From a virus (taxonomy: Duplodnaviria; Heunggongvirae; Uroviricota; Caudoviricetes): a stretch of DNA of 40,883 nt. Below, piece after piece: positions 2,132 through 39,528 of the stretch; within the stretch, counting starts at the first letter, position 1; every line of letters starts with the position of its first letter. The notes beneath the pieces were generated by a model. That model ran no database searches. It was given only the letters and a program-made list of their open reading frames with translations, and was not told where the DNA came from. The DNA lies in the IMG/VR virus record IMGVR_UViG_2909314774_000005; one strand, given 5' to 3'. A program made the translations under genes and the position numbers.

Positions 2132-2145
2132 TGAATGCCTCCCGG

Positions 2146-2442: not shown

Positions 2443-2451
2443 GCCGCGCCC

Positions 2452-2915: not shown

Positions 2916-3012
2916 GATTTAATTCTCCTCTGTTTCCGGCGTGCAGAAGCCCGCGGCGCTGACGTCGGAATAAAAAAGAAAATGTTTTTATTAAATAATT
3001 AACGTGGTGTGT

Positions 3013-3543: not shown

Positions 3544-3570
3544 TTTTTATGATTTCTCCAGTTGTGCTGA

Positions 3571-3840
3571 TTACCACAAAGATTCCGGCCACACGACGCG
3601 ACAGCCGTGCAGTTCGAAAACGCCCTGACGGAAATATCCCCTGTGGTCATGTCCGGTATACAGATAACAGGCCTTTCCCTGCTCAAGCATGCGCATGCAA
3701 TGCGCACTCCGGGAAACGCGGATGACAGGTTTGTTACCCCTGATGGTGATGCTTTGTACATCCGTGTTCGTCGCCTTAAGCGCCATAATGGCTGACTGCA
3801 CTTTGCTGATTTGCTGGTTGATACCTGTGGTGGATTTCAT
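3571..3840 (-). CDS. hypothetical early protein (89 aa), in the position of Mu kil-region genes
   Basis: ATG preceded by AAAGGGG, begins 3 nt after the ATPase gene stop; no recognisable motif. Confidence 0.5.
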   Translation of the reverse strand: MKSTTGINQQISKVQSAIMALKATNTDVQSITIRGNKPVIRVSRSAHCMRMLEQGKACYLYTGHDHRGYFRQGVFELHGCRVVWPESLW

Positions 3841-3842
3841 TA

Positions 3843-5009: not shown

Positions 5010-5019
5010 GTTTCCCTCC

Positions 5020-6789
5020 TCAGTTGCCGTTAACAATGCTGATAACACTGCTGCGGGCCGGTGTGGTCAGCGTGGCCATGACTTCATCCAGTGCGGCTTC
5101 CGGTACGCCGTCCGGGTACTGTGCCGTTAACTGGCGGTAATGTTCCGGCGTCCAGGTAAGGCCGTCGGCGCTGAACTTATCGCGCAGGGCTTTCGCGGCC
5201 TCCACATGAGTCATGGGACGTTGTTCAGTGCGCGGCCCGCGTACGTCAGAGGCCTGACCACGCTTCGGCATATAGGCCGGAAGTGTGGTGTCGTCGATAT
5301 GTTTATACGGGTCAAGCCGCCCGCCGAACGGCAGCGCCTTCGCCTTGCGTGCGGCGGCTGCATCTGCGGCGTTGTCTGTACCGGTAACCAGCGCTTCGGT
5401 TTCTTTTGCCGCCATCTGTGCCGGGGTTTCCGGCAGGGCTTTGTAACTTTCGCCAAATACCGCCGCGCCTTCAGCAAAGCCAAACTCGTTCTTTCTGACC
5501 TCTTCGACCAGGAAGAACGTCTCGTGGCCGTCCTCACCGGTCAGAACCACCTGTGCCACATCGCTGCGCCATGGGTTACGGGTAATCATCAGTTTTTCAC
5601 CAACCAGTACGCCCGGTACCGTTGATACGTCAAATTCAGTGCCCCGGAACGAGACACGAAGTTTTGGCGTGACTTTGCGGAGTTCTGGTGCCGCCACAGC
5701 CAGTTCACGACATACCTCAACGGAAGGCGCTTTTTTCAGCTGCTCAGCAGTAATCTTCAGCCAGATATCCGTGCGGGTTTTACCGTGGCGGCTGTGAACA
5801 GCCGTGGCGTTAAAGTGGCTGCGCCATTTCGCGGCCAGCGCGTTGAGTTCTTCCAGACTGTGAACCGGCCGGAACTTCAGACCCGGCTCCAGCTTGCGTT
5901 CGATAATGTCACGCGCCTTTTCCACCTGTCCGGTGGCGCGGGCGTTATGCGGCTTGTGCGCTATCAGGTCGATGCCCAGTGAGCGGCACATGTTTTTCGT
6001 CATACCCGCGGTGTTTGCCGAGCCGGGGTCGAGATAGAGTATTTTCGGCACGCCGTGCAGCACGTCTGCGCCGCCACGCTCCTGCATGGCGTTGATAAGC
6101 ACAGAACACAGGTTCTCACCTGATTCCGCGCCCGTCACATACTCAACGTAAATCCAGCCGCTGGCATGGTCGGTAATCTCGTAACTCCACACGCGGTCAC
6201 TGGCGATACGGGCAAGGTTAGCGGGCTTGTTCTTGTAGAACTTCGCGCTGTCCATCACCTGCAGCCCTTTATGTCCATTGCTCAGGTAGTAAAGCGTGCA
6301 GAGTGAGGCGTCAATCTGCCAGACATGATTGGGATGCAGACTGGCCACTTCGGTATGTGGTGCAGGGGCATCCAGTTGTTCCGGGTGCAGGCCATAGTTA
6401 CGCAGAGCACGGCTGATGGCATCTTCAGACAACGGGAAAAACTCACTGGTGGTTTCATCTGTTCTGCCTGCGGTGATAAAGCCGTTAGCCCGCAGGGTTT
6501 CCACTGCATCTGCGATGGAATAGAGACGCTTACCGTTCTTGCGGGTGGCCTCACGCAGTGTGGCAGATATCAGCGCGGCTTCGTCGCGGGTCAGGGCGCT
6601 GCGCCCGGCATCGGCGCGTTTTTTGCGTTTATCAGTCACAGATACCTCCTTCAGCCTGCGCAGCAGAGTGGCGCGGGACATGCCAAGTTCAGCACAGGCA
6701 GCGTCGTATATTGCACCGCGTTTACCATGCCCCGCGTCACGTGCCGCGCGGGCTGTTTCAACCAGTTTTTCAGTCAGTGCCGGGGTCAT
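5020..6789 (-). CDS. DDE (rve/integrase-core) transposase of the transposable phage
   Basis: 589 aa; N-terminal HTH; DDE-like triad candidates (VWQIDAS, LYLDPGSAN, GQVEKA) in retroviral-integrase-like spacing; N-terminus unlike MuA as I recall it; sits just upstream of the AAA+ ATPase gene. Confidence 0.85.
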   Translation of the reverse strand: MTPALTEKLVETARAARDAGHGKRGAIYDAACAELGMSRATLLRRLKEVSVTDKRKKRADAGRSALTRDEAALISATLREATRKNGKRLYSIADAVETLRANGFITAGRTDETTSEFFPLSEDAISRALRNYGLHPEQLDAPAPHTEVASLHPNHVWQIDASLCTLYYLSNGHKGLQVMDSAKFYKNKPANLARIASDRVWSYEITDHASGWIYVEYVTGAESGENLCSVLINAMQERGGADVLHGVPKILYLDPGSANTAGMTKNMCRSLGIDLIAHKPHNARATGQVEKARDIIERKLEPGLKFRPVHSLEELNALAAKWRSHFNATAVHSRHGKTRTDIWLKITAEQLKKAPSVEVCRELAVAAPELRKVTPKLRVSFRGTEFDVSTVPGVLVGEKLMITRNPWRSDVAQVVLTGEDGHETFFLVEEVRKNEFGFAEGAAVFGESYKALPETPAQMAAKETEALVTGTDNAADAAAARKAKALPFGGRLDPYKHIDDTTLPAYMPKRGQASDVRGPRTEQRPMTHVEAAKALRDKFSADGLTWTPEHYRQLTAQYPDGVPEAALDEVMATLTTPARSSVISIVNGN

Positions 6790-6804
6790 AGCTTGTCTTC
6801 CCTG

Positions 6805-7122
6805 TTATCCGATTCTGGCGGCAATTTTTCTGGCGAGGTCGCACAGTGTTTCGCCATCGCAGGTTTTCACCACGGTATTTACCGGTTGCGGTGCAACTAC
6901 CGGGCGTAATGCTGACTGATTCTGCAGACGTCTTATCTGCTGCATCAGCATCACCTCCATCGTCAGTACAAACGGGTGCGTCTCCTGTGCGGGTACGCAG
7001 ATTTCACCGGAAGGGGTCACCACGCGGAAACCCTGCACCATCTCCGGCAGCAGATTACACAGTGCGTGCCCCAGTGCCTCCGGGCTGTCCATCAGGGTAT
7101 TTTGTGTGTTATTCGTATTCAT
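6805..7122 (-). CDS. hypothetical early protein (105 aa)
   Basis: ATG overlaps the upstream stop (TAATG), GGAGGAT upstream; no recognisable motif. Confidence 0.55.
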   Translation of the reverse strand: MNTNNTQNTLMDSPEALGHALCNLLPEMVQGFRVVTPSGEICVPAQETHPFVLTMEVMLMQQIRRLQNQSALRPVVAPQPVNTVVKTCDGETLCDLARKIAARIG

Positions 7123-8042
7123 TACTGCATATCCTCCGGTCGGTTGATTTCAGGTTCCGGTTCGGTCAGCCAGGCGGGGGCATCGTTACCCGATGGAGCG
7201 GCCTCAAGGTCAAACGTCTCACGTAATGCATGAACACTGCGTTCAATCTGGCAGACCAGACCGGCCATGAAATCTCTGGGGGTATCGATCATGTTTTTGG
7301 TGCAGTATTCACACAGGGTCTCAAAAACACTGGACAGCCGGACGGCGATAGCCGATTCGGCCTCAACCGCTAATGCCGTCACTTCCGCCCGCAATTTTTT
7401 CAGTTCTTCGTCTGGCGGCGGAGGTTGCAGGCGCGATTTCTTCTCCAGTTTTGTGGCCAGTTCGTTGATTTTTTCGTCCTTTCCGGCAAGCACCTGTTGC
7501 TGAGCTGCGTTGGTTTCGCGCGCTTCACGCAGGGCGGCCTTCAGTTCGCGGCTGGTCATGCGATCAATATCATCAAGCGTTGCACCGGCGACGGTTCCAC
7601 CATCAGCTAATGCGTCGAGTTCTTCGTCATCCAGAACCATCAGTTCATATAACTTGGTTTTTCCCAAAACGCTCAGCGCTGAGCGTTTTGGCTGTTCATC
7701 TCCATTGCCGAGAAATTTCACGCTGGCCTGCATCATGCGACGAGCTACCTGTGGTGCTAATCCGAGGTCGTTTTCCAGAATATTTGTGAAATCACCATGC
7801 GGTTCATTTTCTTTTAAGATGATCAGCCGCTTACCCGCTTCCAACATAGATTCAGCACTCTGCGCCATATAAAAACGTGCTTCGTGAACGATGCGTTCAC
7901 GTTCATAAGGCAGTCCATCACCAAACTGCTGCATGATCTCCATGCGATGCTGTGTCATGGCATTCAGGCTGACGTTGAGATCATCCGACAGCGGTACATC
8001 GGCGTTCAGTTCAGTGTTAATCGGTGATTTGGTACGTCCCAT
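7122..8042 (-). CDS. conserved Mu-like early protein (306 aa, possibly DUF3102-like; coiled-coil centre, Pro-rich linker)
   Basis: ATG preceded by AAGGAG; central EELKKLRAEV coiled-coil-like segment and PPPPDEE linker; family assignment is from memory and unverified. Confidence 0.6.
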   Translation of the reverse strand: MGRTKSPINTELNADVPLSDDLNVSLNAMTQHRMEIMQQFGDGLPYERERIVHEARFYMAQSAESMLEAGKRLIILKENEPHGDFTNILENDLGLAPQVARRMMQASVKFLGNGDEQPKRSALSVLGKTKLYELMVLDDEELDALADGGTVAGATLDDIDRMTSRELKAALREARETNAAQQQVLAGKDEKINELATKLEKKSRLQPPPPDEELKKLRAEVTALAVEAESAIAVRLSSVFETLCEYCTKNMIDTPRDFMAGLVCQIERSVHALRETFDLEAAPSGNDAPAWLTEPEPEINRPEDMQ

Positions 8043-8052
8043 TGATTACTCC

Positions 8053-8367
8053 TTACAAACGACTACCTGAAATGACACGTTGGTTAATTTCGTTAATACG
8101 ATCCTGTGCACGTGCCATCTCGTTACTGTGGGCCATGGCGATCTGCAGTAACTGGATGCCCGGTGCAAAACGTCCGTTCTCCAGTTTCAGAGCCAGCCCT
8201 TCTTCAATGAGGGTGTTGAGTGCCCGGTTGATGTTTGCCGGTGACTCGTGCAGTGCTGTCGCCAGTTCACCGTTAGAAATACCGTTCAGGGCATGACCGC
8301 GCAGCGCTTTGAGTACCCGGAGGATGCGACTGCCGGAGCTTGAAACATTCGTCTTACTCATCTGCAT
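8053..8367 (-). CDS. winged-helix DNA-binding protein (104 aa), second early regulator candidate
   Basis: RILRVLKALRGHALNGISNGELATALHESPANINRALNTLIEEGLA has a MarR/IclR-like wHTH pattern; ATG with AGAGG upstream. Confidence 0.55.
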   Translation of the reverse strand: MQMSKTNVSSSGSRILRVLKALRGHALNGISNGELATALHESPANINRALNTLIEEGLALKLENGRFAPGIQLLQIAMAHSNEMARAQDRINEINQRVISGSRL

Positions 8368-8413
8368 ACCTCTTTTGCGATATGTGATAACCTTTTACAA
8401 AGACTCAAAATAT

Positions 8414-8602
8414 TTAGGCCGCCTGAGCTGTTGATTTCAGTCCCAACTTCACGGCGATTTCATGGGATTTACCGTAACGGGCTTTGGTCTGCCCGTTGAG
8501 AACGCGGTATACCTCATTGCGGTTGTAGCCGTTTTCTTCTGCCCAGCGGGTGAAAGTGATCCCGCGCTGGCGGAAGAGAGCTTTGACTTGTTCTGCAGTC
8601 AT
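8414..8602 (-). CDS. Ner-like/Cro-like DNA-binding regulator, first gene of the early operon
   Basis: 62-aa basic HTH protein (FTRWAEENGYNRNEVYRVLNGQ), ATG preceded by AAGGAG; divergent from the repressor gene across a palindromic operator. Confidence 0.75.
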   Translation of the reverse strand: MTAEQVKALFRQRGITFTRWAEENGYNRNEVYRVLNGQTKARYGKSHEIAVKLGLKSTAQAA

Positions 8603-8654
8603 CGTTGTCTCCTTTGTTGATGCAATGATGTTTGCCTTATATGTGTTAGATTAT

Positions 8655-8672
8655 TGCTCATAATTATGAGCA
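8655..8672. promoter_or_regulatory. 18-bp perfect palindrome TGCTCATAATTATGAGCA in the divergent repressor/early-operon control region
   Basis: Read directly: 9+9 perfect inverted repeat centred in the 93-bp AT-rich spacer between the ner-like start (8602) and repressor start (8696). Confidence 0.5.
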
Positions 8673-8695
8673 TATCAAGATAGAGATTCACTTTT

Positions 8696-9052
8696 ATGAG
8701 CAAAGATATAGGAGAGCGCGTTATTTCTGTGAGGAAGAAAGCAGGGTTGAACCAGAGAGAATTTGCAGCTCGTTTAGGTATTTCTAATGGTGGTATCAGT
8801 CAGATTGAAAATGGAAAGGCGATGCCTGGAGGGGAGTTTCTGTTAAAGATGCATCAAGAGTTTAATGTTGATGTAAATTGGTTGCTCACTGGAATGAGCA
8901 CAGATGGTATGACTAGAAACCAGAATCAAATTTCCCCAGAAAAACAAAAACTAATAGATACTTTTGACGACATGACACCAGACCAACAACGCTCATTTCT
9001 TGAGATTGGGCGATTCTATACTCAGCCAAAACCAGGAAAAATCGCAGGCTGA
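8696..9052 (+). CDS. XRE-family HTH repressor (c-repressor analogue)
   Basis: 118-aa ORF with Cro/C1-type HTH (LNQREFAARLGISNGGISQIENG) and WLLTG motif; transcribed opposite to the early operon; weak SD, as is common for repressors. Confidence 0.8.
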   Translation: MSKDIGERVISVRKKAGLNQREFAARLGISNGGISQIENGKAMPGGEFLLKMHQEFNVDVNWLLTGMSTDGMTRNQNQISPEKQKLIDTFDDMTPDQQRSFLEIGRFYTQPKPGKIAG

Positions 9053-9137
9053 TACTGACCCGGACACAAAGGACAGGTGGTTGATCTGGATGCTTTCAGA
9101 AAACATCGCCAGTGACATAGTGGAAGTTGTTTGGTTT

Positions 9138-9170
9138 ACCGGAAAGCATTGTGCTTTCCGGTTTTGTTTC
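9138..9170 (+). terminator. Rho-independent terminator downstream of the repressor gene
   Basis: Perfect 10-bp stem ACCGGAAAGC / GCTTTCCGGT with 5-nt loop followed by TTTTGTTT on the + strand; the T tract overlaps the dam stop codon on the other strand. Confidence 0.55.
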
Positions 9171-9933
9171 AGAAGTTGCAGATTAGCAGTTCACGGCGCG
9201 GCGTGGGTTTACCCGCCAGACTGTAGTTGATATTCACTGTCTGTATGTTCAGTCCAGTGAACACCTCGCGCATCTGCGGGATGTCGTTCACCGAAATTAT
9301 CATTTTTCCTCTGATGCACCGGGCCAGCTCTGCCAGCCGCGAGTAGTTCCCTTCAGGAAAATCCACACCATAGCCTTCCGTACCCAGGTACGGTGGGTCG
9401 CAGTAGAACAGCGTGTGCGGACGATCATAACGCTCAATGCACTGTTGCCAGTCCATGTGTTCTATGACTGTTCTGGAAAGCCGCAGGTGTGCCGCTGACA
9501 GTTCTTCTTCAATACGTAGCAGGTTGAAGCGTGGCGGGGATGTGGTGGAGGTACCGAAGCTGTGCTCTGCCACCTTGCCGCCAAACGCCTGCTTCTGAAG
9601 GTAGTAGAACCGTGCCGCACGCTGGATATCCGTCAGTGTTTCTTCCGGGGTGATCTGCAGCCATTTGTAGATCTGACGGCTGACCAGCGCCCATTTGAAC
9701 TGGCGGACAAATTCTTCCAGGTGATGCTTTACCACCCGGTACAGATTCACCAGTTCACCGTTGATATCATTGATGACTTCGATCTTGCCGGGTGTCTTAA
9801 GAAAATAGAGCGCTGCTGCCCCACAAAACGGCTCCACATAACATTCATGCGCCGGAAACAGCGGCAGAATGTGTTTTGCAAGGCGGCGTTTGCCACCAAT
9901 CCACGGCACGATGGGTAATGTCTGCATTTTCAT
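9169..9933 (-). CDS. DNA adenine methyltransferase, Dam family (D12-class N6-MTase)
   Basis: N-terminal PWIGGKRRL and FxGxG-like VEPFCGAAALYF AdoMet motif, C-terminal catalytic DPPY (LFYCDPPYLG); start taken at ATG 9933 (MKMQTLP) rather than track start 10023. Confidence 0.85.
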   Translation of the reverse strand: MKMQTLPIVPWIGGKRRLAKHILPLFPAHECYVEPFCGAAALYFLKTPGKIEVINDINGELVNLYRVVKHHLEEFVRQFKWALVSRQIYKWLQITPEETLTDIQRAARFYYLQKQAFGGKVAEHSFGTSTTSPPRFNLLRIEEELSAAHLRLSRTVIEHMDWQQCIERYDRPHTLFYCDPPYLGTEGYGVDFPEGNYSRLAELARCIRGKMIISVNDIPQMREVFTGLNIQTVNINYSLAGKPTPRRELLICNF

Positions 9934-9981
9934 AATCTGCAAGCCTTTTACAATTATTAAAAAATATGGCAGTCTGGTCAG

Positions 9982-9993
9982 GTCTCGCGAGAC
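9982..9993. promoter_or_regulatory. 12-bp perfect palindrome GTCTCGCGAGAC about 50 bp upstream of the dam start
   Basis: Read directly; flanking arms extend the dyad imperfectly; no adjacent T tract on either strand, so more likely a protein-binding site than a terminator. Confidence 0.35.
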
Positions 9994-10123
9994 TGACTGA
10001 ACCTTGGTCGGCTCACAGCGCATTCCTGTGGGGCGATGACCAGCCCGGCTTTCGGGTGCCGGGCTGGTCGTTCTTTCATGATGCGGCAGGGATGGCGGGA
10101 TTTCTGTTAATGTGGTTTAGGGA

Positions 10124-10339
10124 TTATCCGGGGCGATTTTCTGACCTTATCCGGTCCAGGGCATAAGTAATACCTTCTGCAAAAACAGAAGTATCAAACT
10201 GCTTTTGTATTCCCTGAAAATGAAAAGCGGCACGACAGACACTCAGTTCTCCGCGGTATAACCGGATAATATCTTCCAGAACATTGTTCACTGCTTCAGC
10301 ACGGCGCTGATGTTCTGTTAACGTTAATCGGGGATTCAT
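10124..10339 (-). CDS. hypothetical protein (71 aa)
   Basis: ATG preceded by a strong TAAGGAG SD at 6-7 nt spacing; no recognisable motif; lies in an AT-richer stretch. Confidence 0.45.
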   Translation of the reverse strand: MNPRLTLTEHQRRAEAVNNVLEDIIRLYRGELSVCRAAFHFQGIQKQFDTSVFAEGITYALDRIRSENRPG

Positions 10340-10742
10340 GATGCACTCCTTAAATGATGATTTTTATGTACTCACCGGCAAAATATTCTGCCGATTACTG
10401 AACACGCATCCGGCACCTCAGGTTTTGATTTATTCTGGTTTTTTCGATATCCCGGACCAGGTTGATCACGACCAGAAAAAGTGCCGGTGTTTTATTGATA
10501 CGCTGATATGGCTTCGGGATAACAGCTATATTCGTTACTCTCAGTTGCTGGCTGTGGGAGCGGCTGATGTCGTCCTCACGGAAAAAACGCTCTGTCTGCT
10601 CAATGCCATGCCGACCTTTCTGCAGCCCCGGCCCGTACCATTTAAAGAGTCACTTCTGGATGCAGTAAAAACCGGTGAAAATGCAGTCATCGCTGAATGC
10701 GTATCCCGGATTATGCGTTACGTGTTTAATGAACGTAAGTGA
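10338..10742 (+). CDS. hypothetical protein (134 aa)
   Basis: ATG preceded by CGGGGA; exactly fills the 378-bp gap between the P-loop gene stop and the 71-aa ORF start; its start overlaps the 71-aa ORF start on the other strand (shared CATG), so one of the two may be spurious. Confidence 0.35.
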   Translation: MMHSLNDDFYVLTGKIFCRLLNTHPAPQVLIYSGFFDIPDQVDHDQKKCRCFIDTLIWLRDNSYIRYSQLLAVGAADVVLTEKTLCLLNAMPTFLQPRPVPFKESLLDAVKTGENAVIAECVSRIMRYVFNERK

Positions 10743-11446
10743 GGTTTATCCGCTGTCTGCATAATCCCGATAGCCAGTGCGAGGGGAAGTAATTCCGGGG
10801 AAACTCTTTCAAACAGCGATGCCCATTCTCCTCTCGCCATCACTCTGTCCAGCCCGCCCTCCAGTTGCATTTCAGCAATCTTCCTGATTTCCCGGAACAA
10901 CGCCGCTTTGATCTCTTCATGCTCAGCTTTATTTTCCGGTGTCAGAAGGTATTCGTCGAAGAACCGGGGAGGCTGGTTAATCGGGATGTGTTCCTGTTTG
11001 CCGTACTTCGGGGACGAACAACATTCTGTTGACTGACCAGTGAGTTTACGTAACTCCTTCATGAGCAGCTCCTGATCGTAAACTGTCATCAGTGCCGCAA
11101 TGGTGGCATGCAGTGCATCGGGCAGTATCCAGGGTTGCCGGCCCGTGGGGCATATAACATCCAGCAGCTCATTCGTCCGACAGATACGCTCCTCGCCGTA
11201 TGACAACAGGCCCTGTCCCGTGTATTCCTCCAGCCTGATCACTGTGCCAGCCCGTGGTTTCTGCCATGTGCTCAGATCATCCCCACTCATACGGCGCTCA
11301 CCGTCCACGTCTGCGGCGTCGACAATGACGCTGTTTCCGAATTCCTGTTTCACCACTTCCTCTATTCGCGCCAGTACGTAACTTTTACCGCTGCCCACAG
11401 GACCGGACACGGTGACAGTGATGACCGGATTCAGTGTCTGCGTCAT
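10718..11446 (-). CDS. uncharacterised P-loop NTPase (242 aa)
   Basis: Walker A GPVGSGKS at residues 15-22; ATG preceded by GAGGAG; divergently transcribed from the lysis operon; no family recognised for the C-terminal 160 residues. Confidence 0.75.
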   Translation of the reverse strand: MTQTLNPVITVTVSGPVGSGKSYVLARIEEVVKQEFGNSVIVDAADVDGERRMSGDDLSTWQKPRAGTVIRLEEYTGQGLLSYGEERICRTNELLDVICPTGRQPWILPDALHATIAALMTVYDQELLMKELRKLTGQSTECCSSPKYGKQEHIPINQPPRFFDEYLLTPENKAEHEEIKAALFREIRKIAEMQLEGGLDRVMARGEWASLFERVSPELLPLALAIGIMQTADKPHLRSLNT

Positions 11447-11576
11447 ATCGTATTCTCCTCTGTGAATAATTCATCGTTTATCCTGCACATCCCGTATCCC
11501 CGGCTCTCTTAACGCGCTTTAAAATCCTTCGCGCCCTGTATTTGTGATGCTGTCTCCACCAGATAAGGAGACACAC

Positions 11577-11927
11577 ATGAAAAACCTGAAAAAATTCATT
11601 CCCCCTGTTAAAAAACCTCGCCTCAGCGGCTGGCTGCTGACCTCAGTGCTGTTGCTGGGCACCATCGCTCTGGTCTCACCACAGCAGCTGCCTGTTGTGA
11701 TCTACAAGCTGGCACTCATCACGCTGGCAGCAGTGCTGGGTTACTGGCTTGACCGTTCGCTCTTCCCCAAAGCCCGTCCCGGTCAGTACCTGAAACATGA
11801 CGACAGGCTGATGGCTGAAGGGCGTTTCCCGGTACAGACCGGCCTTCACCTGGTGTTTTCTGCTGCGTTAATCCGCCGTGCACTGATTGTTGCAGCGGTC
11901 TGCCTGGCTGTTGCGATGGGGCTTTAA
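11577..11927 (+). CDS. putative holin-like membrane protein (116 aa, three predicted TM segments)
   Basis: First gene of the late/lysis operon; ATG preceded by AAGGAG (track ORF begins at upstream GTG 11544); three hydrophobic segments; holin role inferred from position only. Confidence 0.6.
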   Translation: MKNLKKFIPPVKKPRLSGWLLTSVLLLGTIALVSPQQLPVVIYKLALITLAAVLGYWLDRSLFPKARPGQYLKHDDRLMAEGRFPVQTGLHLVFSAALIRRALIVAAVCLAVAMGL

Positions 11928-11929
11928 TC

Positions 11930-12670
11930 ATGAACTGGCCGCAGATCACCTGGATTGTATGCATGTCCCTGAAACTGGCTTTCGAAGCCTTTCGGGTCTT
12001 CATCAGAACCGAACGCCTGTCAGTCCGCGCCGGGACCTTTCTGGTTCATATGGCATGGGTATTCTTTGTCGCAATGTTGCTCTGGTGTGGCGGCTTTTTC
12101 AGCCAGGCATGCGCAGCACAACCTCCGCAGGCTGCGCTGCAGTATCGCGATGATGTGATCCGTAATGCCCGGCTTGAATGGGGACTGTCTGCGCCGGTGG
12201 CCGATTTCGCCGCGCAACTGCATCAGGAAAGCGGCTGGCGACCTGATGCGATCTCGCCGGCTGGCGCTCAGGGACTGGCGCAGTTCATGCCTGCCACTGC
12301 CGACTGGATAAGCCAGTTGATACCGATGCTGAGCAGTCGTGAGCCGTTTAATCCGGCATGGGCTATCCGGGCGCTGGTCAGCTATGACCGCTGGCTGTGG
12401 CAGCGTGTCAGCGCCGCCAGTGACTGCGAGCGTATGGCCATGACACTGTCGGGCTATAACGGTGGTCTGGGCTGGGTACAACGGGACAGGCGGCTTGCAT
12501 CACAGAAAGGTCTGGACAGCACCCGCTGGTTCGGACATGTCGCCACGGTGAATGCCGGACGCAATGCGGCCAGCTGGCGGGAGAACCGCCATTATCCGCA
12601 GCGCATCCTGCGCGAACTGGCACCGCGATATCTCACATGGGGAGGCAGCAGTTGTGTGGCATCTGGTTAA
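11930..12670 (+). CDS. endolysin, lytic transglycosylase (SLT domain) with N-terminal hydrophobic signal/anchor segment
   Basis: Family-1 LT motif QESGWRPDAISPAGAQGLAQFMP; ATG 2 nt after the holin-like stop; N-terminal hydrophobic stretch (residues about 37-60) may be a signal peptide or SAR domain. Confidence 0.85.
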   Translation: MNWPQITWIVCMSLKLAFEAFRVFIRTERLSVRAGTFLVHMAWVFFVAMLLWCGGFFSQACAAQPPQAALQYRDDVIRNARLEWGLSAPVADFAAQLHQESGWRPDAISPAGAQGLAQFMPATADWISQLIPMLSSREPFNPAWAIRALVSYDRWLWQRVSAASDCERMAMTLSGYNGGLGWVQRDRRLASQKGLDSTRWFGHVATVNAGRNAASWRENRHYPQRILRELAPRYLTWGGSSCVASG

Positions 12671-32734: not shown

Positions 32735-33305
32735 GCCATTACAACTCCCGCCACCGCTTGAGGGTGATATCAGTCTCAGGACGCTGGGAAGACTGGCAGG
32801 ACGGCTGGATAACATCGACCTGAGCGTACTGATGGTCTTTCTCGTCGATATCGTCGACAGTTCCGCGCTGCCATGGCTGGGCGAGCAGTTCTCACTGTCT
32901 GGCGATGGCTGGGAGCTGGCGGAATCGGACGATGTTCGCCGCATGCTTATAAAAGCAGCCATCGAACTGCACCGGTATAAAGGGACGCCGTGGTCAATCC
33001 GGGAAGTTATCCGCCGTTTTGGCTTTGGTGAAGTGGATCTGATTGAAGGCACAGGTCGTCTCAGTTACGACGGCAATCGCAGCTATAACGGACTGTTTGT
33101 TCATGGAGATGCAGCCGCCTGGGCAGTTTATCGCGTTATTCTGAAACAGCCCATTACTAACGATCAGGCCGCGATGCTGCGTCAGACGCTGGCTGCATTT
33201 GCACCGGCCCGCTGCCATCTGGCCAGCCTGGAGTATCAGTCTGTGGCCATTCGCTATAACAATACCGCCATCCATGATGGCAGTTATAACCACGGGAGCA
33301 GTTGA
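32727..33305 (+). CDS. tail protein I-like (Mu gp48-like, P2 gpI-like)
   Basis: 192-aa ORF between the J-like and tail-fibre genes. Confidence 0.75.
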   Translation: MTEPLQLPPPLEGDISLRTLGRLAGRLDNIDLSVLMVFLVDIVDSSALPWLGEQFSLSGDGWELAESDDVRRMLIKAAIELHRYKGTPWSIREVIRRFGFGEVDLIEGTGRLSYDGNRSYNGLFVHGDAAAWAVYRVILKQPITNDQAAMLRQTLAAFAPARCHLASLEYQSVAIRYNNTAIHDGSYNHGSS

Positions 33306-33307
33306 TT

Positions 33308-34639
33308 ATGGGAAACCTGAATGAAACAGAAAAGTGGGAAGAAAATATCTATCAACTGGAGACATCAGATCCGGTTCTGGGTGGTGCAGACGGGATATCA
33401 AATCGAGCCCCCCGGCAACTGGCAAACAGGACGAAATGGCTGAAGAAGAAAACGGAGGAAGCCGCACAGTCACTGGCTGAACACGTACGTTCCCGTAACC
33501 ACCCGGACGCGACACTGACAGCTAAGGGGTTCACCCAACTGAGCAGTGCCACCAACAGCACCTCTGAAACGCTGGCCGCCACACCAAAAGCGGTCAAGGC
33601 TGCATACGACCTGGCAGCCGGCAAGGCGCCTGCCAGCCACACTCACCCGTGGAGTCAGATAACGGGAGTGCCTGCGGCTTCACTGACGGCAAAAGGCACC
33701 GTACAACTGAGCAGCGCCACGGACAGTCAATCAGAAACTGAGGCTGCCACGCCGAAGGCGGTCAAGGCTGCATACGACCTTGCAGCCGGCAAGGCGCCCG
33801 TCAGCCACACTCACCCGTGGAGTCAGATAACGGGAGTGCCTGCTGCCTCGCTGACGGCAAAAGGCACCGTACAATTGAGCAGTGCCATCAACAGCACGTC
33901 TGAAATACTGGCCGCCACACCGAAAGCGGTCAAGGCTGCATACGATCTGGCAAACGGAAAACAACCGGCAGATGCCACGCTCACTGCTCTGGCAGGACTT
34001 GCCACTGCAGCAGATCGGTTGCCTTATTTTACCGGAGCAGACCGCGCAGAGCTGGCAACCCTTACAGCTATTGGTCGCGCTATTATCGCTAAGGGCAGTA
34101 TAAAAGATGTCCTCAATTACCTTGGTTTAGGAGAAGGCTCGGCGCTACCCGTTGGTGTGCCTGTTCCGTGGCCCACCGCCACACCGCCAGCAGGCTGGTT
34201 AAAGTGCGACGGGCGCGCCTTTACAAAAGAACAATATCCTGTTCTGGCCAGAGTCTACCCGACCCTCCGTCTTCCCGATTTACGCGGTGAGTTTATCCGT
34301 GGATGGGACGACGGGCGCAAAGTTGATACAGGACGTAAGTTGCTGTCCGCACAAGGGGCAACGCTGTTAAGAACAGCAATGCTGGATTATTATAACCAGG
34401 ACACTACGGGAACCTCGGGGATAGTCGGCATGGGATTCAACAATGAAGATTCCATTACAGACCTTCGTGAGGGCAGCTTTAAAATGCCGGACGGGACAAC
34501 ATTCAGCGATCCTGTCGTGGCAATGTCAGACAATGGTATGCAGGCTACTATTCTGACCTCTATCAGAAGCGGGTATGCGAAGGGTATCACTGTCAGACCC
34601 CGTAGCATTGCACTTAATTACATTGTGAGGGCAGTTTAA
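33308..34639 (+). CDS. tail fibre protein (constant N-terminal part plus currently expressed C-terminal variable cassette)
   Basis: 443-aa ORF from first ATG; internal 56-aa tail-fibre repeats; C-terminal part after the gix-like site (from LGEGSALPVGVPVPWP) is homologous to the two inverted cassettes downstream. Confidence 0.85.
   Translation: MGNLNETEKWEENIYQLETSDPVLGGADGISNRAPRQLANRTKWLKKKTEEAAQSLAEHVRSRNHPDATLTAKGFTQLSSATNSTSETLAATPKAVKAAYDLAAGKAPASHTHPWSQITGVPAASLTAKGTVQLSSATDSQSETEAATPKAVKAAYDLAAGKAPVSHTHPWSQITGVPAASLTAKGTVQLSSAINSTSEILAATPKAVKAAYDLANGKQPADATLTALAGLATAADRLPYFTGADRAELATLTAIGRAIIAKGSIKDVLNYLGLGEGSALPVGVPVPWPTATPPAGWLKCDGRAFTKEQYPVLARVYPTLRLPDLRGEFIRGWDDGRKVDTGRKLLSAQGATLLRTAMLDYYNQDTTGTSGIVGMGFNNEDSITDLREGSFKMPDGTTFSDPVVAMSDNGMQATILTSIRSGYAKGITVRPRSIALNYIVRAV
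33518..33961 (+). repeat. tandem 168-bp (56-aa) repeats, about 2.6 copies, inside the tail-fibre gene
   Basis: Protein repeats TAKG(F/T)xQLSSAxxSxSExxAATPKAVKAAYDLAAGKAPxSHTHPWSQITGVPAASL starting at residues 73, 129 and 185. Confidence 0.8.
34110..34135 (+). other. gix-like recombination site (expression-locus copy) at the constant/variable junction of the tail-fibre gene
   Basis: Right half-site GGTTTAGGAGAA resembles the Gin/Hin site half GGTTTACAGGAA (from memory); the same half-site recurs inverted at 35713-35738 and 38692-38717, exactly where homology to the fibre C-terminus begins. Confidence 0.55.
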
Positions 34640-35253
34640 TGAGTAACACTGCAGTTCTGGATGAAAACGGTATCGCCACTGTAGCGGGCGATATCACTGT
34701 ATATCACTATGACGAGGAAACCCGGGAATACACCTCATCCTCTGTGGAGTATCTCGCCCTTGGGGTGGGTACTCCGGCACATTCGTGCGCCGATGCACCG
34801 CCGGAAGCAATTTCGGGTTACGTGGTTTGCCGGACTGCCACGCTGAACGGGTGGGAGCATGTGCCTGATCACCGCGGCGAGACGGTATACAGCACGGAGA
34901 ACGGTAACCCCGTTCTGATTACCCAACCGGGTGATTACCCGGCGGACACCACCACAAAACAGCCAGCCACGCCATGGGATACCTGGAACGGTGAGGCGTG
35001 GGTAACCGATACTGAACGGCAGCGAGCCGCAGAACTGGAGGTTGCCAGACAGCAACGCCAGCAACGGGTGAAACAGGCGATGGCGTCCGTCGATCTTATC
35101 AACCTCAAACTGCGTGCTGGTCGCAGTCTGAAACCAGAAGAAACGGCAAAACTGAACGCCGTGCTGGATTATATCGACGAGCTGAACGCACTGGATATCA
35201 GCAAGGCACCTGAAATCAGCTGGCCGGAAGCGCCACTGGCGCTTGCCGGCTGA
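34639..35253 (+). CDS. tail fibre assembly chaperone (Tfa family, Mu U-like)
   Basis: 204-aa ORF with Tfa-like motifs (VPDHRGETVY ... WNGEAWVTDTE ... ISKAPEISWPEAP), directly after the fibre gene. Confidence 0.8.
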   Translation: MSNTAVLDENGIATVAGDITVYHYDEETREYTSSSVEYLALGVGTPAHSCADAPPEAISGYVVCRTATLNGWEHVPDHRGETVYSTENGNPVLITQPGDYPADTTTKQPATPWDTWNGEAWVTDTERQRAAELEVARQQRQQRVKQAMASVDLINLKLRAGRSLKPEETAKLNAVLDYIDELNALDISKAPEISWPEAPLALAG

Positions 35254-35259
35254 ACGGTA

Positions 35260-35721
35260 TCACGCCGCCCTCACGATATAGTTAAATGCGATATTGCGGG
35301 GGCGAGCTGATACATAAGCCCACCAGTCATATCTTTGTGCACCTTTAGAGGATGCATCAAATATCCACTTTTTGCCATTTAAGACCCCCAGTTGATTAGA
35401 GGTTAAAGCGTCACCAAATCCGTATTGTGTAGAGCCGAGCGAACTGATATCTCCGGTATCATTATCATCAAAACCGGATACGATAGTCCCTTCCTGAAAT
35501 GAAAGTAGCGCACGCCCGGTATCAACCTTGCGACCACCGTCCCATCCACGGATAAACTCACCGCGCAAATCGGGAAGACGGAGGGTCGGGTAGACTCTGA
35601 CCAGAACAGGATATTGTTCTTTGGTGAACGTAGCTCCGTTGCACTGTAACCAGCCTGCTGGCGGTGTGGCGGTGGGCCATGGAACCGGTACACCAACAGG
35701 CAATGCAGAGCCTTCCCCCAA
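35260..35721 (-). CDS. silent, inverted alternative tail-fibre C-terminal cassette (153 codons, begins with Leu TTG at the gix site)
   Basis: First about 70 residues near-identical to the expressed fibre C-terminal region (GEGSALPVGVPVPWPTATPPAGWL...), divergent tip, same C-terminal ending (RPRNIAFNYIVRAA); no ATG, so expression requires inversion. Confidence 0.7.
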   Translation of the reverse strand: MGEGSALPVGVPVPWPTATPPAGWLQCNGATFTKEQYPVLVRVYPTLRLPDLRGEFIRGWDGGRKVDTGRALLSFQEGTIVSGFDDNDTGDISSLGSTQYGFGDALTSNQLGVLNGKKWIFDASSKGAQRYDWWAYVSARPRNIAFNYIVRAA

Positions 35722-35738
35722 ACCAACGTTTCTATGCC
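35713..35738 (-). other. gix-like recombination site (inverted copy 1)
   Basis: TTCCCCCAAACC-AA-CGTTT on the + strand, reverse complement of the GGTTTGGGGGAA half-site, located at the 5' end of the silent cassette. Confidence 0.5.
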
Positions 35739-35905
35739 GCCCTTACGATGTAATTAAACGCAATGTTACGGGGACGAATGGTCACATAATTAACCCCATC
35801 GCCTCGCGAAGGACCTGCAAATGAAAAACGGGAGAATCCAGGTTGGTTGTCAACGATTTGGTCATAGTTATTGATTGAATGACCAGACCCAATGTCAAAA
35901 TTACC
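35732..35905 (-). pseudogene. 3' fragment of a second silent tail-fibre cassette, separated from its 5' part by the IS66-family insertion
   Basis: - strand reading frame open from the IS boundary to a stop at 35732-35734, ending ...IRPRNIAFNYIVRAA like the other cassettes; joins in frame with fragment 38438..38700 when the IS and one target-duplication copy are removed. Confidence 0.7.
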
Positions 35906-35935
35906 GTAAGCGTCAACGGAGCACCGTATTGACGC

Positions 35936-37549
35936 TTATTTATTGGTGAGTACTACGTTCCATGGCAGGAGTTCGTCAACTCGGTTGGAAGGCCATTCCG
36001 GCAGTACGCTCAGGATATGGCGCAGATACGCTTCCGGATCGATACCGTTCAGACGGCAGGTGCCGATCAGCCCGTACAACAGTGCTCCACGCTCGCCGCC
36101 GTGATCGCTGCCAAAGAACATAAAGTTTTTCTTTCCGAGACAGACTGCACGAAGCGCTCTTTCCGCAGCATTATTATCCGCCTCCGCCAGACCGTCATCA
36201 CTGTAATAACAGAGGGCATCCCACTGATTCAGTACATAGCTGAACGCTTCGCCCAGTCTGGATTTTTTCGACAGCGTACCATTCTTCTCCACCATCCATT
36301 CATGCAGCGACGTCAGTAACACTTTGCTTCGCTGCTGCCTGACGGCAAGACGCTCTGACTCCGGTAATCCCCGTATTTCATCCTCGATGGCGTACAGTTC
36401 ACTGATTCGCTTCAGGGCTTCTTCTGCCGTCGCACTTTTGCTGCTGATGTATACATCGTGGATTTTTCGCCGGGCATGGGCCCAGCACGCAACTTCTGTC
36501 AGTGCACCACCTTCACGTTCTGCACTGAACAACCTGTCGTAACCTGTGAACGCATCCGCCTGCAGGATACCCCGGAAGGGGCGGAGGTGTTGCTCCGGGT
36601 GTTTCCCCTGCCGGTTCGGCGAGTACGCGAACCAGACCGCTGGAGGAGATGACGAACCCACATTGCGATCATCCCGGACATACGTCCAGATACGCCCTGT
36701 TTTCGCCTTTTTCTGACCCGGTGCCAGTACCTTTACCGGTGTGTCATCAGTGTGAACCTTGCGGGTGTTCATTACATAACGGTACAGGGCATCATTCACC
36801 GGTGTCATTAACTGGCAGCACGCGTCAACCCAGTTGGAGAGTAAGGCCCGGCTCAGTTCGACACCCTGGCGGGCAAAGATTTCACTCTGACGATACAGTG
36901 GCAGATGTTCGCAGTATTTTCCCGTTAACACGCGGGCAAGTAATCCGGGGCCCGCGATACCACGCTCTATCGGGCGGGACGGCGCCGGTGCTTCAACAAT
37001 ACAGTCACATTTTGTACAGGCTTTTTTTACCCGTTCTGTGCGGATCACTTTCAGGGCACTGCTCACCAGTTCCAGCTGTTCAGCGCTGACTTCCCCCAGA
37101 TAATCCAGCTCACCGCCACACTCCGGGCAACAGCTTTCTTCTGGCTCCAGGCGGTGTATTTCACGGGGAAGGTGTGCCGGTAACGGACGACGATGGCGCG
37201 ACTGTCGCAACTGGCGGGGAACCTGAGGATCGTCTTCCCGCCCACTGTAACGATCGCTGTCCTGTTCACGTTGTTTCAGCAGAGCCTCAGCCAGTTCAAC
37301 TTCACGACGCAGTTTTTCAGAACGGGTACCGAACAGCATCCGGCGCAGTTTTTCTATCTGAGCCCGCAGATGTTCTATTTCCCGTTCATCTTCTTCGATC
37401 TTTTCTTCGGCACGTGTCAGTGCAGAGCGCAGGAAGGCTTCCGTCTCTTCAACCAGACTCAGTTGCTGGTCTTTCTGACGGAGGGCTTCAGCCTGCTCAG
37501 AGAGCAACCTTTCCAGCTCTGCGATGCGAATGAGGTATTTCTGACTCAT
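35936..37549 (-). CDS. IS66-family transposase (orf3/TnpC-like, 537 aa)
   Basis: N-terminal leucine-zipper-like region, CxxC...CxxC zinc motif and DDE core typical of IS66 transposases as I recall them. Confidence 0.8.
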   Translation of the reverse strand: MSQKYLIRIAELERLLSEQAEALRQKDQQLSLVEETEAFLRSALTRAEEKIEEDEREIEHLRAQIEKLRRMLFGTRSEKLRREVELAEALLKQREQDSDRYSGREDDPQVPRQLRQSRHRRPLPAHLPREIHRLEPEESCCPECGGELDYLGEVSAEQLELVSSALKVIRTERVKKACTKCDCIVEAPAPSRPIERGIAGPGLLARVLTGKYCEHLPLYRQSEIFARQGVELSRALLSNWVDACCQLMTPVNDALYRYVMNTRKVHTDDTPVKVLAPGQKKAKTGRIWTYVRDDRNVGSSSPPAVWFAYSPNRQGKHPEQHLRPFRGILQADAFTGYDRLFSAEREGGALTEVACWAHARRKIHDVYISSKSATAEEALKRISELYAIEDEIRGLPESERLAVRQQRSKVLLTSLHEWMVEKNGTLSKKSRLGEAFSYVLNQWDALCYYSDDGLAEADNNAAERALRAVCLGKKNFMFFGSDHGGERGALLYGLIGTCRLNGIDPEAYLRHILSVLPEWPSNRVDELLPWNVVLTNK

Positions 37550-37579
37550 GACCGTTTTTATAATGCGGTCAGGAGTTTT

Positions 37580-37930
37580 TTACAACATTGTCAGTGAGTT
37601 ACGGCTGGATGTTTTTGGCTGACGCCAGTCCAGCTTATCGAGGAGCATTGCCAGTTGCGAGCGGGTAATGGATACCTTGCCGTCACGTACCGCAGGCCAG
37701 ATAAACTGGCCTTCCTCCAGGCGTTTGGTGAACAGGCACAGACCATCAGCATCAGCCCAAAGAATTTTGACGGTGTCACCCCGTCGGCCACGGAAGATAA
37801 ACAGGTGACCGGAGAAGGGATTATCATTCAGCACATGTTGTACCTGTTCTCCCAGTCCGTTGAAGGATTTACGCATATCGGTAACGCCGGCAACGAGCCA
37901 GATACGGGTACCTGATGGGAGTGAGATCAT
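37580..37930 (-). CDS. IS66-family accessory protein (orf2/TnpB-like, 116 aa)
   Basis: Size, position and 4-nt overlap with orf1 typical of IS66 elements. Confidence 0.75.
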   Translation of the reverse strand: MISLPSGTRIWLVAGVTDMRKSFNGLGEQVQHVLNDNPFSGHLFIFRGRRGDTVKILWADADGLCLFTKRLEEGQFIWPAVRDGKVSITRSQLAMLLDKLDWRQPKTSSRNSLTML

Positions 37931-38352
37931 CTTCCCCTCCCGGTCAGTTCACGGATCAACACTGTGAGCAGCTCTGGCGATGGATTTTCCAGCGTCATGT
38001 TACCGTGACGGAATTCCACCTTGCAGGAACTGGCACTGACTCTGGTCTGAGTGGAAGTGGATAAAGACGGCGCAATGGCCGCCACAGGTTCTTTCTGCTC
38101 ATCCGGCGTTATTTCTACAGGTAATAATTCAACGCCAGTGTCAGAAGAGGTCGTTACCGGAAGACGCCGCGAAACACGCCCTTCGTTCTGCCAGAGCCTG
38201 AGCCATTTGAAAATAACATTATCATTGACGCCATTTTCACGTGCAATCTGTGCAACACAAGCTCCAGGTTGTGATGCCAGTTCCACCATACGAAGTTTGA
38301 ATTCATTCGAATAGTTTTTACGAGGTTCTTTTCGCCAGTCCTGTAATTCCAT
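37927..38352 (-). CDS. IS66-family accessory protein (orf1/TnpA-like, 141 aa, HTH)
   Basis: N-terminal HTH (FKLRMVELASQPGACVAQIARENGV); first ORF inside the IS. Confidence 0.75.
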   Translation of the reverse strand: MELQDWRKEPRKNYSNEFKLRMVELASQPGACVAQIARENGVNDNVIFKWLRLWQNEGRVSRRLPVTTSSDTGVELLPVEITPDEQKEPVAAIAPSLSTSTQTRVSASSCKVEFRHGNMTLENPSPELLTVLIRELTGRGR

Positions 38353-38437
38353 ACTTAGATGTCCGTCTATATCAGATGGGCGTCTAAGTTACCAATTCTC
38401 GTCTGATGGCTACATACGGCGGTCAGTTTACGCTTAC

Positions 38438-38700
38438 AAATTACCTGCGTAATGAGAAAAACTTGTACCATCCTGCCGTGAAAGCAGATCGCGCCCTGTA
38501 TCCACTTTTCGCCCGTCGTCCCATCCACGGATAAACTCACCGCGTAAATCGGGAAGACGGAGGGTCGGGTAGACTCTGGCCAGAACAGGATATTGTTCTT
38601 TTGTAAAGGCGCGCCCGTCGCACTTTAACCAGCCTGCTGGCGGTGTGGCAGTGGGCCACGGAACAGGTACACCAACGGGCAGCGCCGAGCCTTCCCCCAA
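38438..38700 (-). pseudogene. 5' fragment of the IS-disrupted silent tail-fibre cassette (begins with Leu TTG at the gix site)
   Basis: About 85 codons near-identical to the start of the expressed cassette (GEGSALPVGVPVPWPTATPPAGWLKCDGRAFTKEQYPVLARVYPTLRLPDLRGEFIRGWDDGRKVDTGR), then runs into the IS end. Confidence 0.7.
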
Positions 38701-38717
38701 ACCAACGTTTATCTCTC
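38692..38717 (-). other. gix-like recombination site (inverted copy 2), adjacent to gin
   Basis: TTCCCCCAAACC-AA-CGTTT, identical core and half-site to copy 1; lies about 55 bp upstream of the invertase gene. Confidence 0.5.
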
Positions 38718-38771
38718 AAATCCTCCCCACATTATCTCAGTACTTTAACCACTCAAAAGGGAGTATTTTTA

Positions 38772-39344
38772 ATGCTGATTGGCTACATACGTGTGTCAAC
38801 AAATGACCAAAACACAGATTTGCAACGCAATGCATTAATGTGCGCAGGATGTGAACAGATTTTTGAGGACAAAATGAGCGGAACCAAGTCGGAACGACCA
38901 GGCCTGAAACGCGCTTTAAAGTGCCTTAAAAGAGGGGATACATTGGTGGTCTGGAAGCTGGATCGGTTGGGTAGAAGAATGAAACACCTCATTGCTCTCA
39001 CAGAAGAGCTACGCGCAAAAGGTGTCAATTTTCGCAGTCTGACGGATTCAATCGATACCAGCACTCCGATGGGAAGGTTCTTTTTTCATATGATGGGTGC
39101 ACTGGCAGAAATGGAGCGTGAACTGATAGTTGAGCGCACGCTGGCTGGACTGGCTGCTGCGCGAGCACAAGGAAGAGTTGGAGGACGTCGCCCGAAACTG
39201 ACGAAGGAGCAGCATGAGCAGATCGCAAGATTGCTCCAGAAAGGGTATGACAGAAAGCGGCTGGCAATTATCTATGATATTGGACTGTCAACGATCTACC
39301 GCTATCACCCTGTTGGGACTGTCATAACGCAACCTGAAATGTAA
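38772..39344 (+). CDS. gin: serine DNA invertase, Gin/Pin/Hin family
   Basis: 190-aa ORF from ATG 38772 (AAGGGAG upstream); near-identical over much of its length to Mu Gin as recalled (MLIGYIRVSTNDQNTDLQRNAL ... GRFFFH.MGALAEMERELI.ERT); catalytic Ser in RVSTNDQ. Confidence 0.9.
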   Translation: MLIGYIRVSTNDQNTDLQRNALMCAGCEQIFEDKMSGTKSERPGLKRALKCLKRGDTLVVWKLDRLGRRMKHLIALTEELRAKGVNFRSLTDSIDTSTPMGRFFFHMMGALAEMERELIVERTLAGLAAARAQGRVGGRRPKLTKEQHEQIARLLQKGYDRKRLAIIYDIGLSTIYRYHPVGTVITQPEM

Positions 39345-39378
39345 TTCTTTTTCAAATAATGAAACGCCGCGTGGATGC

Positions 39379-39422
39379 CATTTATCGCACAAGATAGAGT
39401 GCATTTATCGCGCGGCGCATCA
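39379..39422 (+). other. prophage right terminus with Mu-like transposase-binding repeats, ending ...CGCGGCGCATCA
   Basis: Two direct CATTTATCGC repeats and a TGAAACGCCGCG motif resembling the Mu right-end sites (Mu end recalled as ...CGTTTTTCGTGCGCCGCTTCA); terminal CA-3'. Confidence 0.55.
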
Positions 39423-39528
39423 TTCTTCATGTGAATCATCCGTTGATTAATTATATATAAACATTATGTATCAACAAGTTACATTGATAATTAACGCTAC
39501 CATTAATAAAAATACCCCACAAGGTCCG

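Follow-up and report, generated by a model that had tools for sequence, protein, structure and literature searches.

Invertible tail-fibre switches have been described in several phages and related elements. The Gin/G segment of Mu, the Cin/C segment of P1, Pin of e14 and Min of p15B have in common a serine invertase, 26-bp crossover sites and an in-frame exchange of the fibre C-terminus. The closest described system is that of prophage Phi2 of Escherichia coli EC958, for which a Gin-like invertase system and its crossover sites have been published (Forde et al. 2014, PMC4134206). In that study, both orientations of the 2,067-bp Phi2 segment were seen in PacBio reads of EC958 cultures. Insertion sequences of the IS66 family are also well defined, and their definition includes inverted repeats 20-30 bp in length and beginning with GTAAGCG (PMC11946415). 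A copy of one member, ISEc23, is found on the ST131 plasmid pEC958 (PMC4398462). The locus described here brings the two together: in the window (the whole 40.9-kb stretch of DNA that was analysed), an intact ISEc23 almost certainly transposed recently into the third cassette of the Phi2 invertible tail-fibre module, in an ST131 strain.

The host element was identified as EC958 prophage Phi2, a Mu-like prophage of the Bcepmuvirus type located between aroA and ycaL in E. coli ST131, in agreement with the original prediction of a transposable prophage. The insertion sequence and one 3-bp indel are the only differences between the window and EC958 Phi2. In the annotation of the identical EC958 prophage, Phi2 encodes a DDE transposase, a MuB-like ATPase, Gam, Mor, and Mu-type portal and head-morphogenesis proteins, together with tail genes of the P2 type. 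Phage PhiKM, which is 99.9% identical, is classified as Bcepmuvirus, and the backbone is of this type rather than that of Mu proper. The prophage terminates in TG...CA, and comparison with the K-12 aroA-ycaL interval reveals a duplicated GAAGAA, a target duplication of 6 bp for the prophage if its ends are taken as TG/CA, as expected of insertion by transposition and not at an att site. This comparison places the invertase-side end, with its terminal TG/CA dinucleotide, at 39421..39422, and the insertion sequence sits 977 bp inside it.

The gene content of the invertible module closely follows that of the known switches. The expressed tail-fibre gene (33302..34639, + strand) encodes 445 aa, made up of a constant part of 274 residues and the cassette Sv1, with Phage_fiber_2 repeats and a Collar domain. 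Next to it lies the tail-fibre assembly gene (34639..35253, + strand; PF02413), the only one of the module, which is linked to Sv1 inside the invertible segment. A second cassette, Sv2 (35260..35721, - strand), is intact, carries a Collar domain and is silent in the present orientation. The module also encodes a DNA invertase of the Gin type (190 aa; 38772..39344, + strand) with Resolvase and HTH_7 domains, which matched the Gin structures 4M6F and 3UJ3 with an E-value of 2e-93 and displayed 76% identity to Mu Gin. Three 26-bp crossover sites share a half-site and the central dinucleotide. Site A (34110..34135, + strand; TCCTCAATTACCTT followed by GGTTTAGGAGAA) lies within the expressed fibre gene and is the Phi2_5prime site of PMC4134206. 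Site C (38692..38717, - strand; GAGAGATAAACGTT followed by GGTTTGGGGGAA) lies at the start of the third cassette, Sv3, and is the Phi2_3prime site of Table 3 in the same paper. Site B (35713..35738, - strand) lies at the start of Sv2. Site A is thus inverted relative to both B and C.

The locus is the same as the Phi2 segment of EC958, with identical crossover sites and flanks, but whereas two sites were described in PMC4134206, the locus has three, B being the additional one, and likewise three cassettes. The segment from A to C measures 4,582 bp in the window as opposed to 2,042 bp in EC958. The three cassettes are reminiscent of multiple-inversion systems, but there is a single fibre-assembly gene, which the inversions to Sv2 and Sv3 turn away from the late operon. 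In-frame fusions to the constant part exist for all three cassettes in different natural genomes, with Sv2 in TUM2802 and Sv3 in R4 and AZ184. These different fibre states across genomes are consistent with inversion of the segment, and simulated inversions gave in-frame products of 417 aa (without the insertion sequence) and 428 aa.

The inserted sequence spans 2,532 bp (35906..38437, - strand) and encodes, all on the - strand, the genes tnpA, tnpB and tnpC in this order, with all three reading frames intact. Each product fits IS66 family models from Pfam and NCBIfam. TnpA (141 aa; 37927..38352) is a helix-turn-helix accessory protein matching PF01527 and NF047595 (83 bits, cut-off 74). TnpB (116 aa; 37580..37930) corresponds to IS66 Orf2, matching PF05717 (E = 1e-36) and scoring above the cut-off of NF033819, and its start codon overlaps the tnpA stop codon as ATGA. 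TnpC (537 aa; 35936..37549) is a DDE transposase of the IS66 type, with matches to PF03050 (E = 9e-98), PF13817, PF13005 and PF13007, zf-IS66, LZ and C-terminal domains included, and to NF033517 (452 bits, above the cut-off). The terminal inverted repeats, here IRL adjoining tnpC (GTAAGCGTCAACGGAGCACCGTAT; 35906..35929, + strand) and IRR adjoining tnpA (GTAAGCGTAAACTGACCGCCGTAT; 38414..38437, - strand), both begin with GTAAGCGT and agree at 20 of their first 24 positions, as expected of the 20-30 bp repeats of the family. The 8-bp target duplication typical of IS66 elements is also present: AAATTACC stands on both sides of the element (35898..35905 and, as an exact repeat, 38438..38445), occurs nowhere else on either strand of the window, and is single-copy in the empty site. 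The original prediction of a 2.53-kb IS66-family element with identical 8-bp direct repeats and GTAAGCGT-initiated inverted repeats was therefore confirmed, the repeats on exact alignment.

Over its full length, the element shows 100% identity to ISEc23 copies found in numerous E. coli genomes, and its name was taken from the RefSeq annotation of these identical copies ("IS66-like element ISEc23 family"). The likeness extends to the tnpA-tnpB-tnpC order, the ATGA overlap, the GTAAGCG inverted repeats and the 8-bp duplication; the sole difference from known copies is the insertion site. By sequence identity, this is the already catalogued ISEc23 and not a new insertion sequence.

The insertion splits Sv3 in two. 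Its N-terminal part (38446..38703, - strand) amounts to 88 residues with the right repeat copy, and its frame terminates within the end of the insertion sequence (..SHYAGNL*). Its C-terminal part (35732..35897, - strand) consists of 55 residues, FDIGSGHS...RPRNIAFNYIVRAA, and a stop codon. When the flanks are joined with one copy of the repeat, a single continuous - strand frame results, GLGEGSALPVG...RPRNIAFNYIVRAA*. The restored cassette counts 143 residues if read from the crossover glycine and 142 if read from the leucine, which bears out the in-frame cassette of about 142 residues with a conserved ending that had been foreseen. A comparison with related prophages lacking the element had been suggested as a check, and it gave a clear answer: the joined 861 bp matched the unoccupied site at 861 of 861 positions, in one alignment piece, in every genome among the matches listed; these include many ST131 genomes, EC958 among them, and JJ1887. 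In 201 records, the best match to these 861 bp had at least 99% identity, and an intact Sv3 copy with 100% identity is present in PV468777.1. The expectation of a recent event likewise held. Two other parts of the original prediction stand in narrower form. The cassette is silent in the present orientation, but not elsewhere, as it is fused in frame in other genomes. As for precise excision restoring the cassette, the joined sequence is indeed identical to the empty site, but this describes the sequence formally and does not amount to a demonstrated or frequent event; excision would be possible on paper and is expected to be rare.

A 44-aa ORF across the left junction had no match by exact protein sequence, and an exact protein search with the truncated 88-aa fragment matched only ENA metagenome contigs, in which the insertion sequence has the opposite orientation. 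A promoter and terminator scan of positions 35200-39500 gave counts not above those of shuffled sequence.

Based on these findings, ISEc23 almost certainly transposed into Sv3, the third and at present unexpressed C-terminal cassette, duplicating the 8-bp target AAATTACC. No observation speaks against this identification. In the present orientation, the normal Sv1 fibre would still be made. Inversion between A and C would instead place the broken Sv3 behind the constant part. In simulation, this inversion gave a fibre of 417 aa without the insertion sequence and of 363 aa with it, the last 55 residues of Sv3 being missing from the latter, and the truncated fibre is presumably non-functional. 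Late transcription would in this state enter the genes of the insertion sequence in the sense direction. Because Sv3 is silent only in the present orientation, we infer that the insertion converts one state of the switch into a truncated-fibre state.

The insertion may also affect packaging. The DNA packaged by Mu carries host sequence at both ends, about 50 bp on one side and about 2,000 bp on the other (PMC5557969). By analogy with Mu, the original remark on the added length of a headful-packaged genome is reasonable. The insertion adds 2,540 bp to Phi2, bringing the prophage from about 37.0 to about 39.6 kb. Since the added length is greater than the stretch of host DNA at the long end of Mu (roughly 2 kb), the headful slack is probably surpassed, and packaging may remove one prophage end. 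In this respect Phi2 resembles Mu derivatives with insertions, with which it shares a transposable prophage, head and packaging genes of the Mu type and an insertion longer than the host DNA at the long end (PMC5557969).

The insertion in the window is one of many. Among the genomes mapped, we found at least 14 independent ISEc23 insertions in Phi2, 13 in other genomes and that of the present window, and because of these the sequences show that ISEc23 is active in the lineage. Four independent hits fall within a 90-bp stretch of the invertase gene, and others lie in the fibre gene, one head-morphogenesis gene and one early-region gene. A first query, which covered the fibre/invertase module alone, returned ten independent hits, nine in Phi2 and one in another prophage. 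A prophage-wide control, in which one orientation of the insertion sequence was detectable, added five further Phi2 hits at approximately 1.0, 10.9, 11.0, 11.4 and 18.7 kb. We therefore do not claim the module as a special hot region for ISEc23, and regional enrichment is weak at best, since these five hits lie outside it. The 24 insertion sites share a weak target consensus, with G/C at position 1 and an A/T-rich core. They also lie in locally low GC (0.479 versus 0.549; permutation P of about 4e-5, indicative only given uneven detection).

The number of hits raises the question of selection, in which the insertion would have been favoured for crippling or locking the prophage in the course of its domestication in ST131. 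The many independent insertions in Phi2, four of them in the invertase gene, would fit such a process. We nevertheless consider it unlikely, as nothing expressed is inactivated in the orientation of the window, the hits follow locally low GC, and ISEc23, with several copies per genome, is simply abundant in these genomes.

A different question is posed by strain Ec-U4 and an ENA metagenome contig, in both of which ISEc23 occupies the same 8-bp target with the same duplication in the opposite orientation. The present allele might descend from such an insertion with no separate transposition, either through flipping of the element in place, with its identical GTAAGCGT termini recombining or being rejoined by the transposase, or through import of the interrupted cassette by homologous recombination. 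Apart from the shared target and duplication with reversed orientation, this reading draws on the improbability of two hits on one octamer among some 15 mapped in 37 kb, for which our own estimate is roughly 0.3% if all positions are equal. We regard such descent as quite improbable. We know of no described mechanism for the in-place flipping of an IS66 element. Moreover, the weak but real target consensus of the 24 sites favours a local hot spot hit twice, as does the base composition around the target, which has the lowest GC of all the mapped sites (41% over 100 bp).

A separate transposition in the window is thus the reading we prefer, and the doubly used target bears on how ISEc23 chooses its sites. 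Under a hot-spot reading, AAATTACC was used at least twice, with one orientation in the window and the other in Ec-U4 and the metagenome contig, and the 90-bp stretch of the invertase gene received its four hits independently. It is possible, although we hold it only tentatively and consider it somewhat doubtful, that the fine-scale targeting of ISEc23 is non-random, AAATTACC in Sv3 being a true hot spot, or else that the element flips in place in an undescribed way. A literature search on IS66 target hot spots found nothing relevant, and to our knowledge the target preferences of this family are poorly characterised. If true, hot spots would point to a structural target preference, such as for locally A/T-rich or bent DNA. 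Whether through a hot spot or a flip, ISEc23 would then repeatedly disable the phase-variable host-range modules of ST131 prophages.

On a further reading, Sv3 was already a dead remnant, and the insertion would have no host-range consequence. Sv3 lacks both a start codon and a promoter of its own, is labelled a pseudogene by PGAP in EC958 ("missing N-terminus") and has no linked fibre-assembly gene. Still, a dead cassette is very unlikely: Sv3 begins right at a crossover site, shares 53-72% identity with sequences annotated as tail-fibre proteins in other phage genomes, and forms the in-frame fusions of R4 and AZ184. In EC958 cultures, the segment bounded by its crossover site was seen either way round (PMC4134206).

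No copy of the exact insertion allele turned up in 5,426 complete E. coli genomes, in JGI metagenome contigs or in GTDB species representatives, and because of this its authenticity rests on one assembly and the perfect target duplication. Multi-copy repeats are a typical cause of assembly mis-joins, and ISEc23 has several copies per genome, but an artefact in which the source genome was assembled with one of them wrongly placed in the cassette is extremely improbable even with the junction missing from these collections. The target is single-copy in the empty site, and its perfect 8-bp duplication around the element is a signature of transposition and not of a mis-join. The occupation of the same target in Ec-U4 and the metagenome contig shows it to be a real landing place.

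Collectively, the element, the prophage and the switch are all of known kinds, and the insertion is real but ordinary, one of many in Phi2. It represents one more strain-level polymorphism of ST131, in which ISEc23 breaks one of the three host-range variants of Phi2. It provides a clean worked example of such an event, with verification of the empty site, the duplicated target and the restored reading frame. It may also contribute to prophage decay, as the packaging limit is probably passed. For specialists, the repeated use of an 8-bp target and the tight clusters of hits hint at target preferences in the IS66 family. More broadly, the insertion points to high activity of ISEc23 in the ST131 clone.

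The element interrupting the tail-fibre cassette belongs to the IS66 family, as the original prediction had stated. It spans 2,532 bp (35906-38437) and is bounded by the two copies of the 8-bp direct repeat AAATTACC (35898-35905 and 38438-38445), the only ones found when both strands of the window were scanned. Both ends begin with GTAAGCGT and match at 20 of their first 24 positions, bearing out the predicted direct and inverted repeats. Terminal repeats initiated by GTAAGCG and 8-bp duplications are hallmarks of this family (PMC11946415). The genes of the element are intact, lie on the minus strand and match IS66-family models of Pfam and NCBIfam: tnpA (37927-38352, 141 aa), tnpB (37580-37930, 116 aa), whose start overlaps the tnpA stop as ATGA, and tnpC (35936-37549, 537 aa). 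Over its full length the element is 100% identical to copies annotated by RefSeq as ISEc23, and by sequence identity it is this known element and not a new one. A match spanning 80% or more of its length occurs in 2,488 of the 5,426 complete E. coli genomes, on both chromosomes and plasmids, and one copy has been described on the ST131 plasmid pEC958 (PMC4398462). Exact ISEc23 ends were also present on contigs labelled Lachnospiraceae, Clostridia, Rikenellaceae, Bacillota, Streptococcus sanguinis and Moraxella osloensis (records L012, L013, L015 and L021-L024). These contigs are mostly short, and their labels look like binning errors or contamination with Enterobacteriaceae DNA, not true hosts.

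The window is Phi2, the Mu-like prophage of the E. coli ST131 strain EC958, located between aroA and ycaL. Phi2 encodes a DDE transposase, a MuB-like ATPase, Gam, Mor, Mu-type portal and head-morphogenesis genes and a P2-type tail; the phage record PhiKM is 99.9% identical and is classified as Bcepmuvirus. Comparison with the K-12 aroA-ycaL interval gave prophage ends TG...CA with a duplicated GAAGAA (window 39416-39422; record L003, 1830-1837 and 38878-38890), placing the invertase-side end at window position 39422 and giving a length of 37,048 bp in EC958. The prophage is inserted within the first ycaL codons, and in EC958 a start of ycaL is annotated within the end of the prophage. Early genes, from transposase to Mor, occupy 1-12000 on the minus strand, while late genes, from holin to fibre, occupy 12000-35253 on the plus strand. 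Transcription thus diverges from mid-prophage, unlike in Mu, a layout shared with PhiKM.

The interrupted cassette is part of an invertible tail-fibre switch. A 274-residue constant part and cassette Sv1 make up the expressed fibre gene (33302-34639, 445 aa), which is followed by the only fibre-assembly gene (34639-35253); the alternative cassettes Sv2 (35260-35721) and Sv3 (35732-38703, IS-interrupted) lie on the minus strand. Every cassette begins at a 26-bp crossover site, respectively A (34110-34135, plus), B (35713-35738, minus) and C (38692-38717, minus), and next comes a serine invertase of 190 aa (38772-39344) that is 76% identical to Mu Gin. Sites A and C have been listed for Phi2, and the 2,067-bp segment was present in both orientations among EC958 PacBio reads (Forde et al. 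2014, PMC4134206). The constant part contains three tandem 168-bp repeats (Phage_fiber_2, 33513-34016), and RefSeq annotates the 445-aa frame merely as fragments and pseudogenes in EC958 and related genomes.

Sequenced genomes display all three fusions: Sv1 in EC958 and the window, Sv2 in TUM2802, and Sv3 in R4 and AZ184. PV468777.1 carries an intact copy of the cassette with 100% identity to Sv3, and sequences annotated as tail-fibre proteins in other phage genomes, such as P2-like and lambdoid phages, are 53-72% identical to it. Because Sv3 is fused elsewhere and has tail-fibre relatives, its description as a silent cassette is right for the present orientation only. The single assembly gene is common to the three cassettes and tied to Sv1 inside the invertible segment. 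With Sv2 or Sv3 in the expressed position, it faces away from the late operon; therefore, those fibres may be chaperone-free, or the gene may be expressed in another way.

Deleting the element and one repeat copy in silico joined the minus-strand fragments into a single frame, GLGEGSALPVG...RPRNIAFNYIVRAA followed by a stop, as had been predicted; the restored Sv3 cassette has 143 residues counted from the crossover glycine. In every genome listed, EC958 and JJ1887 among them, the unoccupied site aligns to this 861-bp joined sequence in one piece and at 100% identity; in 201 records the best match reached 99% identity or more. The window differs from the EC958 chromosome solely by the element and one 3-bp (GTA) indel near 10210. 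Since flanks, duplication and element show zero divergence, the insertion event is real and very recent, in agreement with the original prediction, which was right in both observation and interpretation. Precise excision would restore Sv3, and nothing suggests a useful excision rate.

In the present orientation, the insertion appears to disrupt nothing expressed. Simulated inversion between A and C yielded a 417-aa fibre from the IS-free sequence and, from the window, a 363-aa product ending in SHYAGNL that lacks the last 55 residues; we therefore infer that one of the three switch states is now dead. In that state, late transcripts would run on into the IS genes in sense orientation. With 2,540 bp added, the prophage measures about 39.6 kb. 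The host DNA that Mu takes into its virions amounts to only about 50 bp on one side and about 2 kb on the opposite side (PMC5557969); by analogy, a full head would now be reached before one end of the prophage has been packaged.

Phi2 in ST131 is a frequent ISEc23 landing place, with many other independent insertions, each with its own 8-bp duplication. These interrupt the fibre gene (AREA_494, E302, AZ 186), a hypothetical gene of 729 bp at around 11 kb, upstream of the holin (sites at about 10900-11370; strains 21319, KA0011, MB1341), an early-region gene (about 1022; 2406_w1) and the Mu G-like head-morphogenesis gene (about 18650; strain 23070). Other ST131 genomes show four independent insertions clustered in a 90-bp stretch inside the invertase gene (38945-39033), in R4 (AGACCACC), TUM2802 (GAATGAAA), S5 (GGTGTTTC) and FXCREC145 (GAAAATTG), two of their targets overlapping by 4 bp. 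Each disrupts the gene, and the switch would therefore be locked unless another invertase acts in trans. In AZ184 and 1434, ISEc23 sits in an Sv2-type cassette of a prophage other than Phi2.

The AAATTACC target itself is occupied in Ec-U4 (L025, 1493-4040), where the broken cassette takes the expressed position, and in an ENA gut-metagenome contig (L010, 1079-1138), with the same duplication and the opposite orientation. This points to either two independent insertions on one octamer or an in-place flip of the element. The junction of the window type was not found elsewhere in 5,426 complete E. coli genomes, JGI metagenomes and GTDB representatives. Only a weak target consensus emerges from 24 sites, and the ISEc23 sites fall in locally low-GC DNA. 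An apparent enrichment of ISEc23 in the fibre module was mostly removed by a prophage-wide control.

The insertion allele is a strain-level polymorphism, and its components, namely ISEc23, the Phi2 inversion system and Mu-like prophages, are all of known kinds and already described. The sole lead of specialist value is that ISEc23 may possess a fine-scale target preference.
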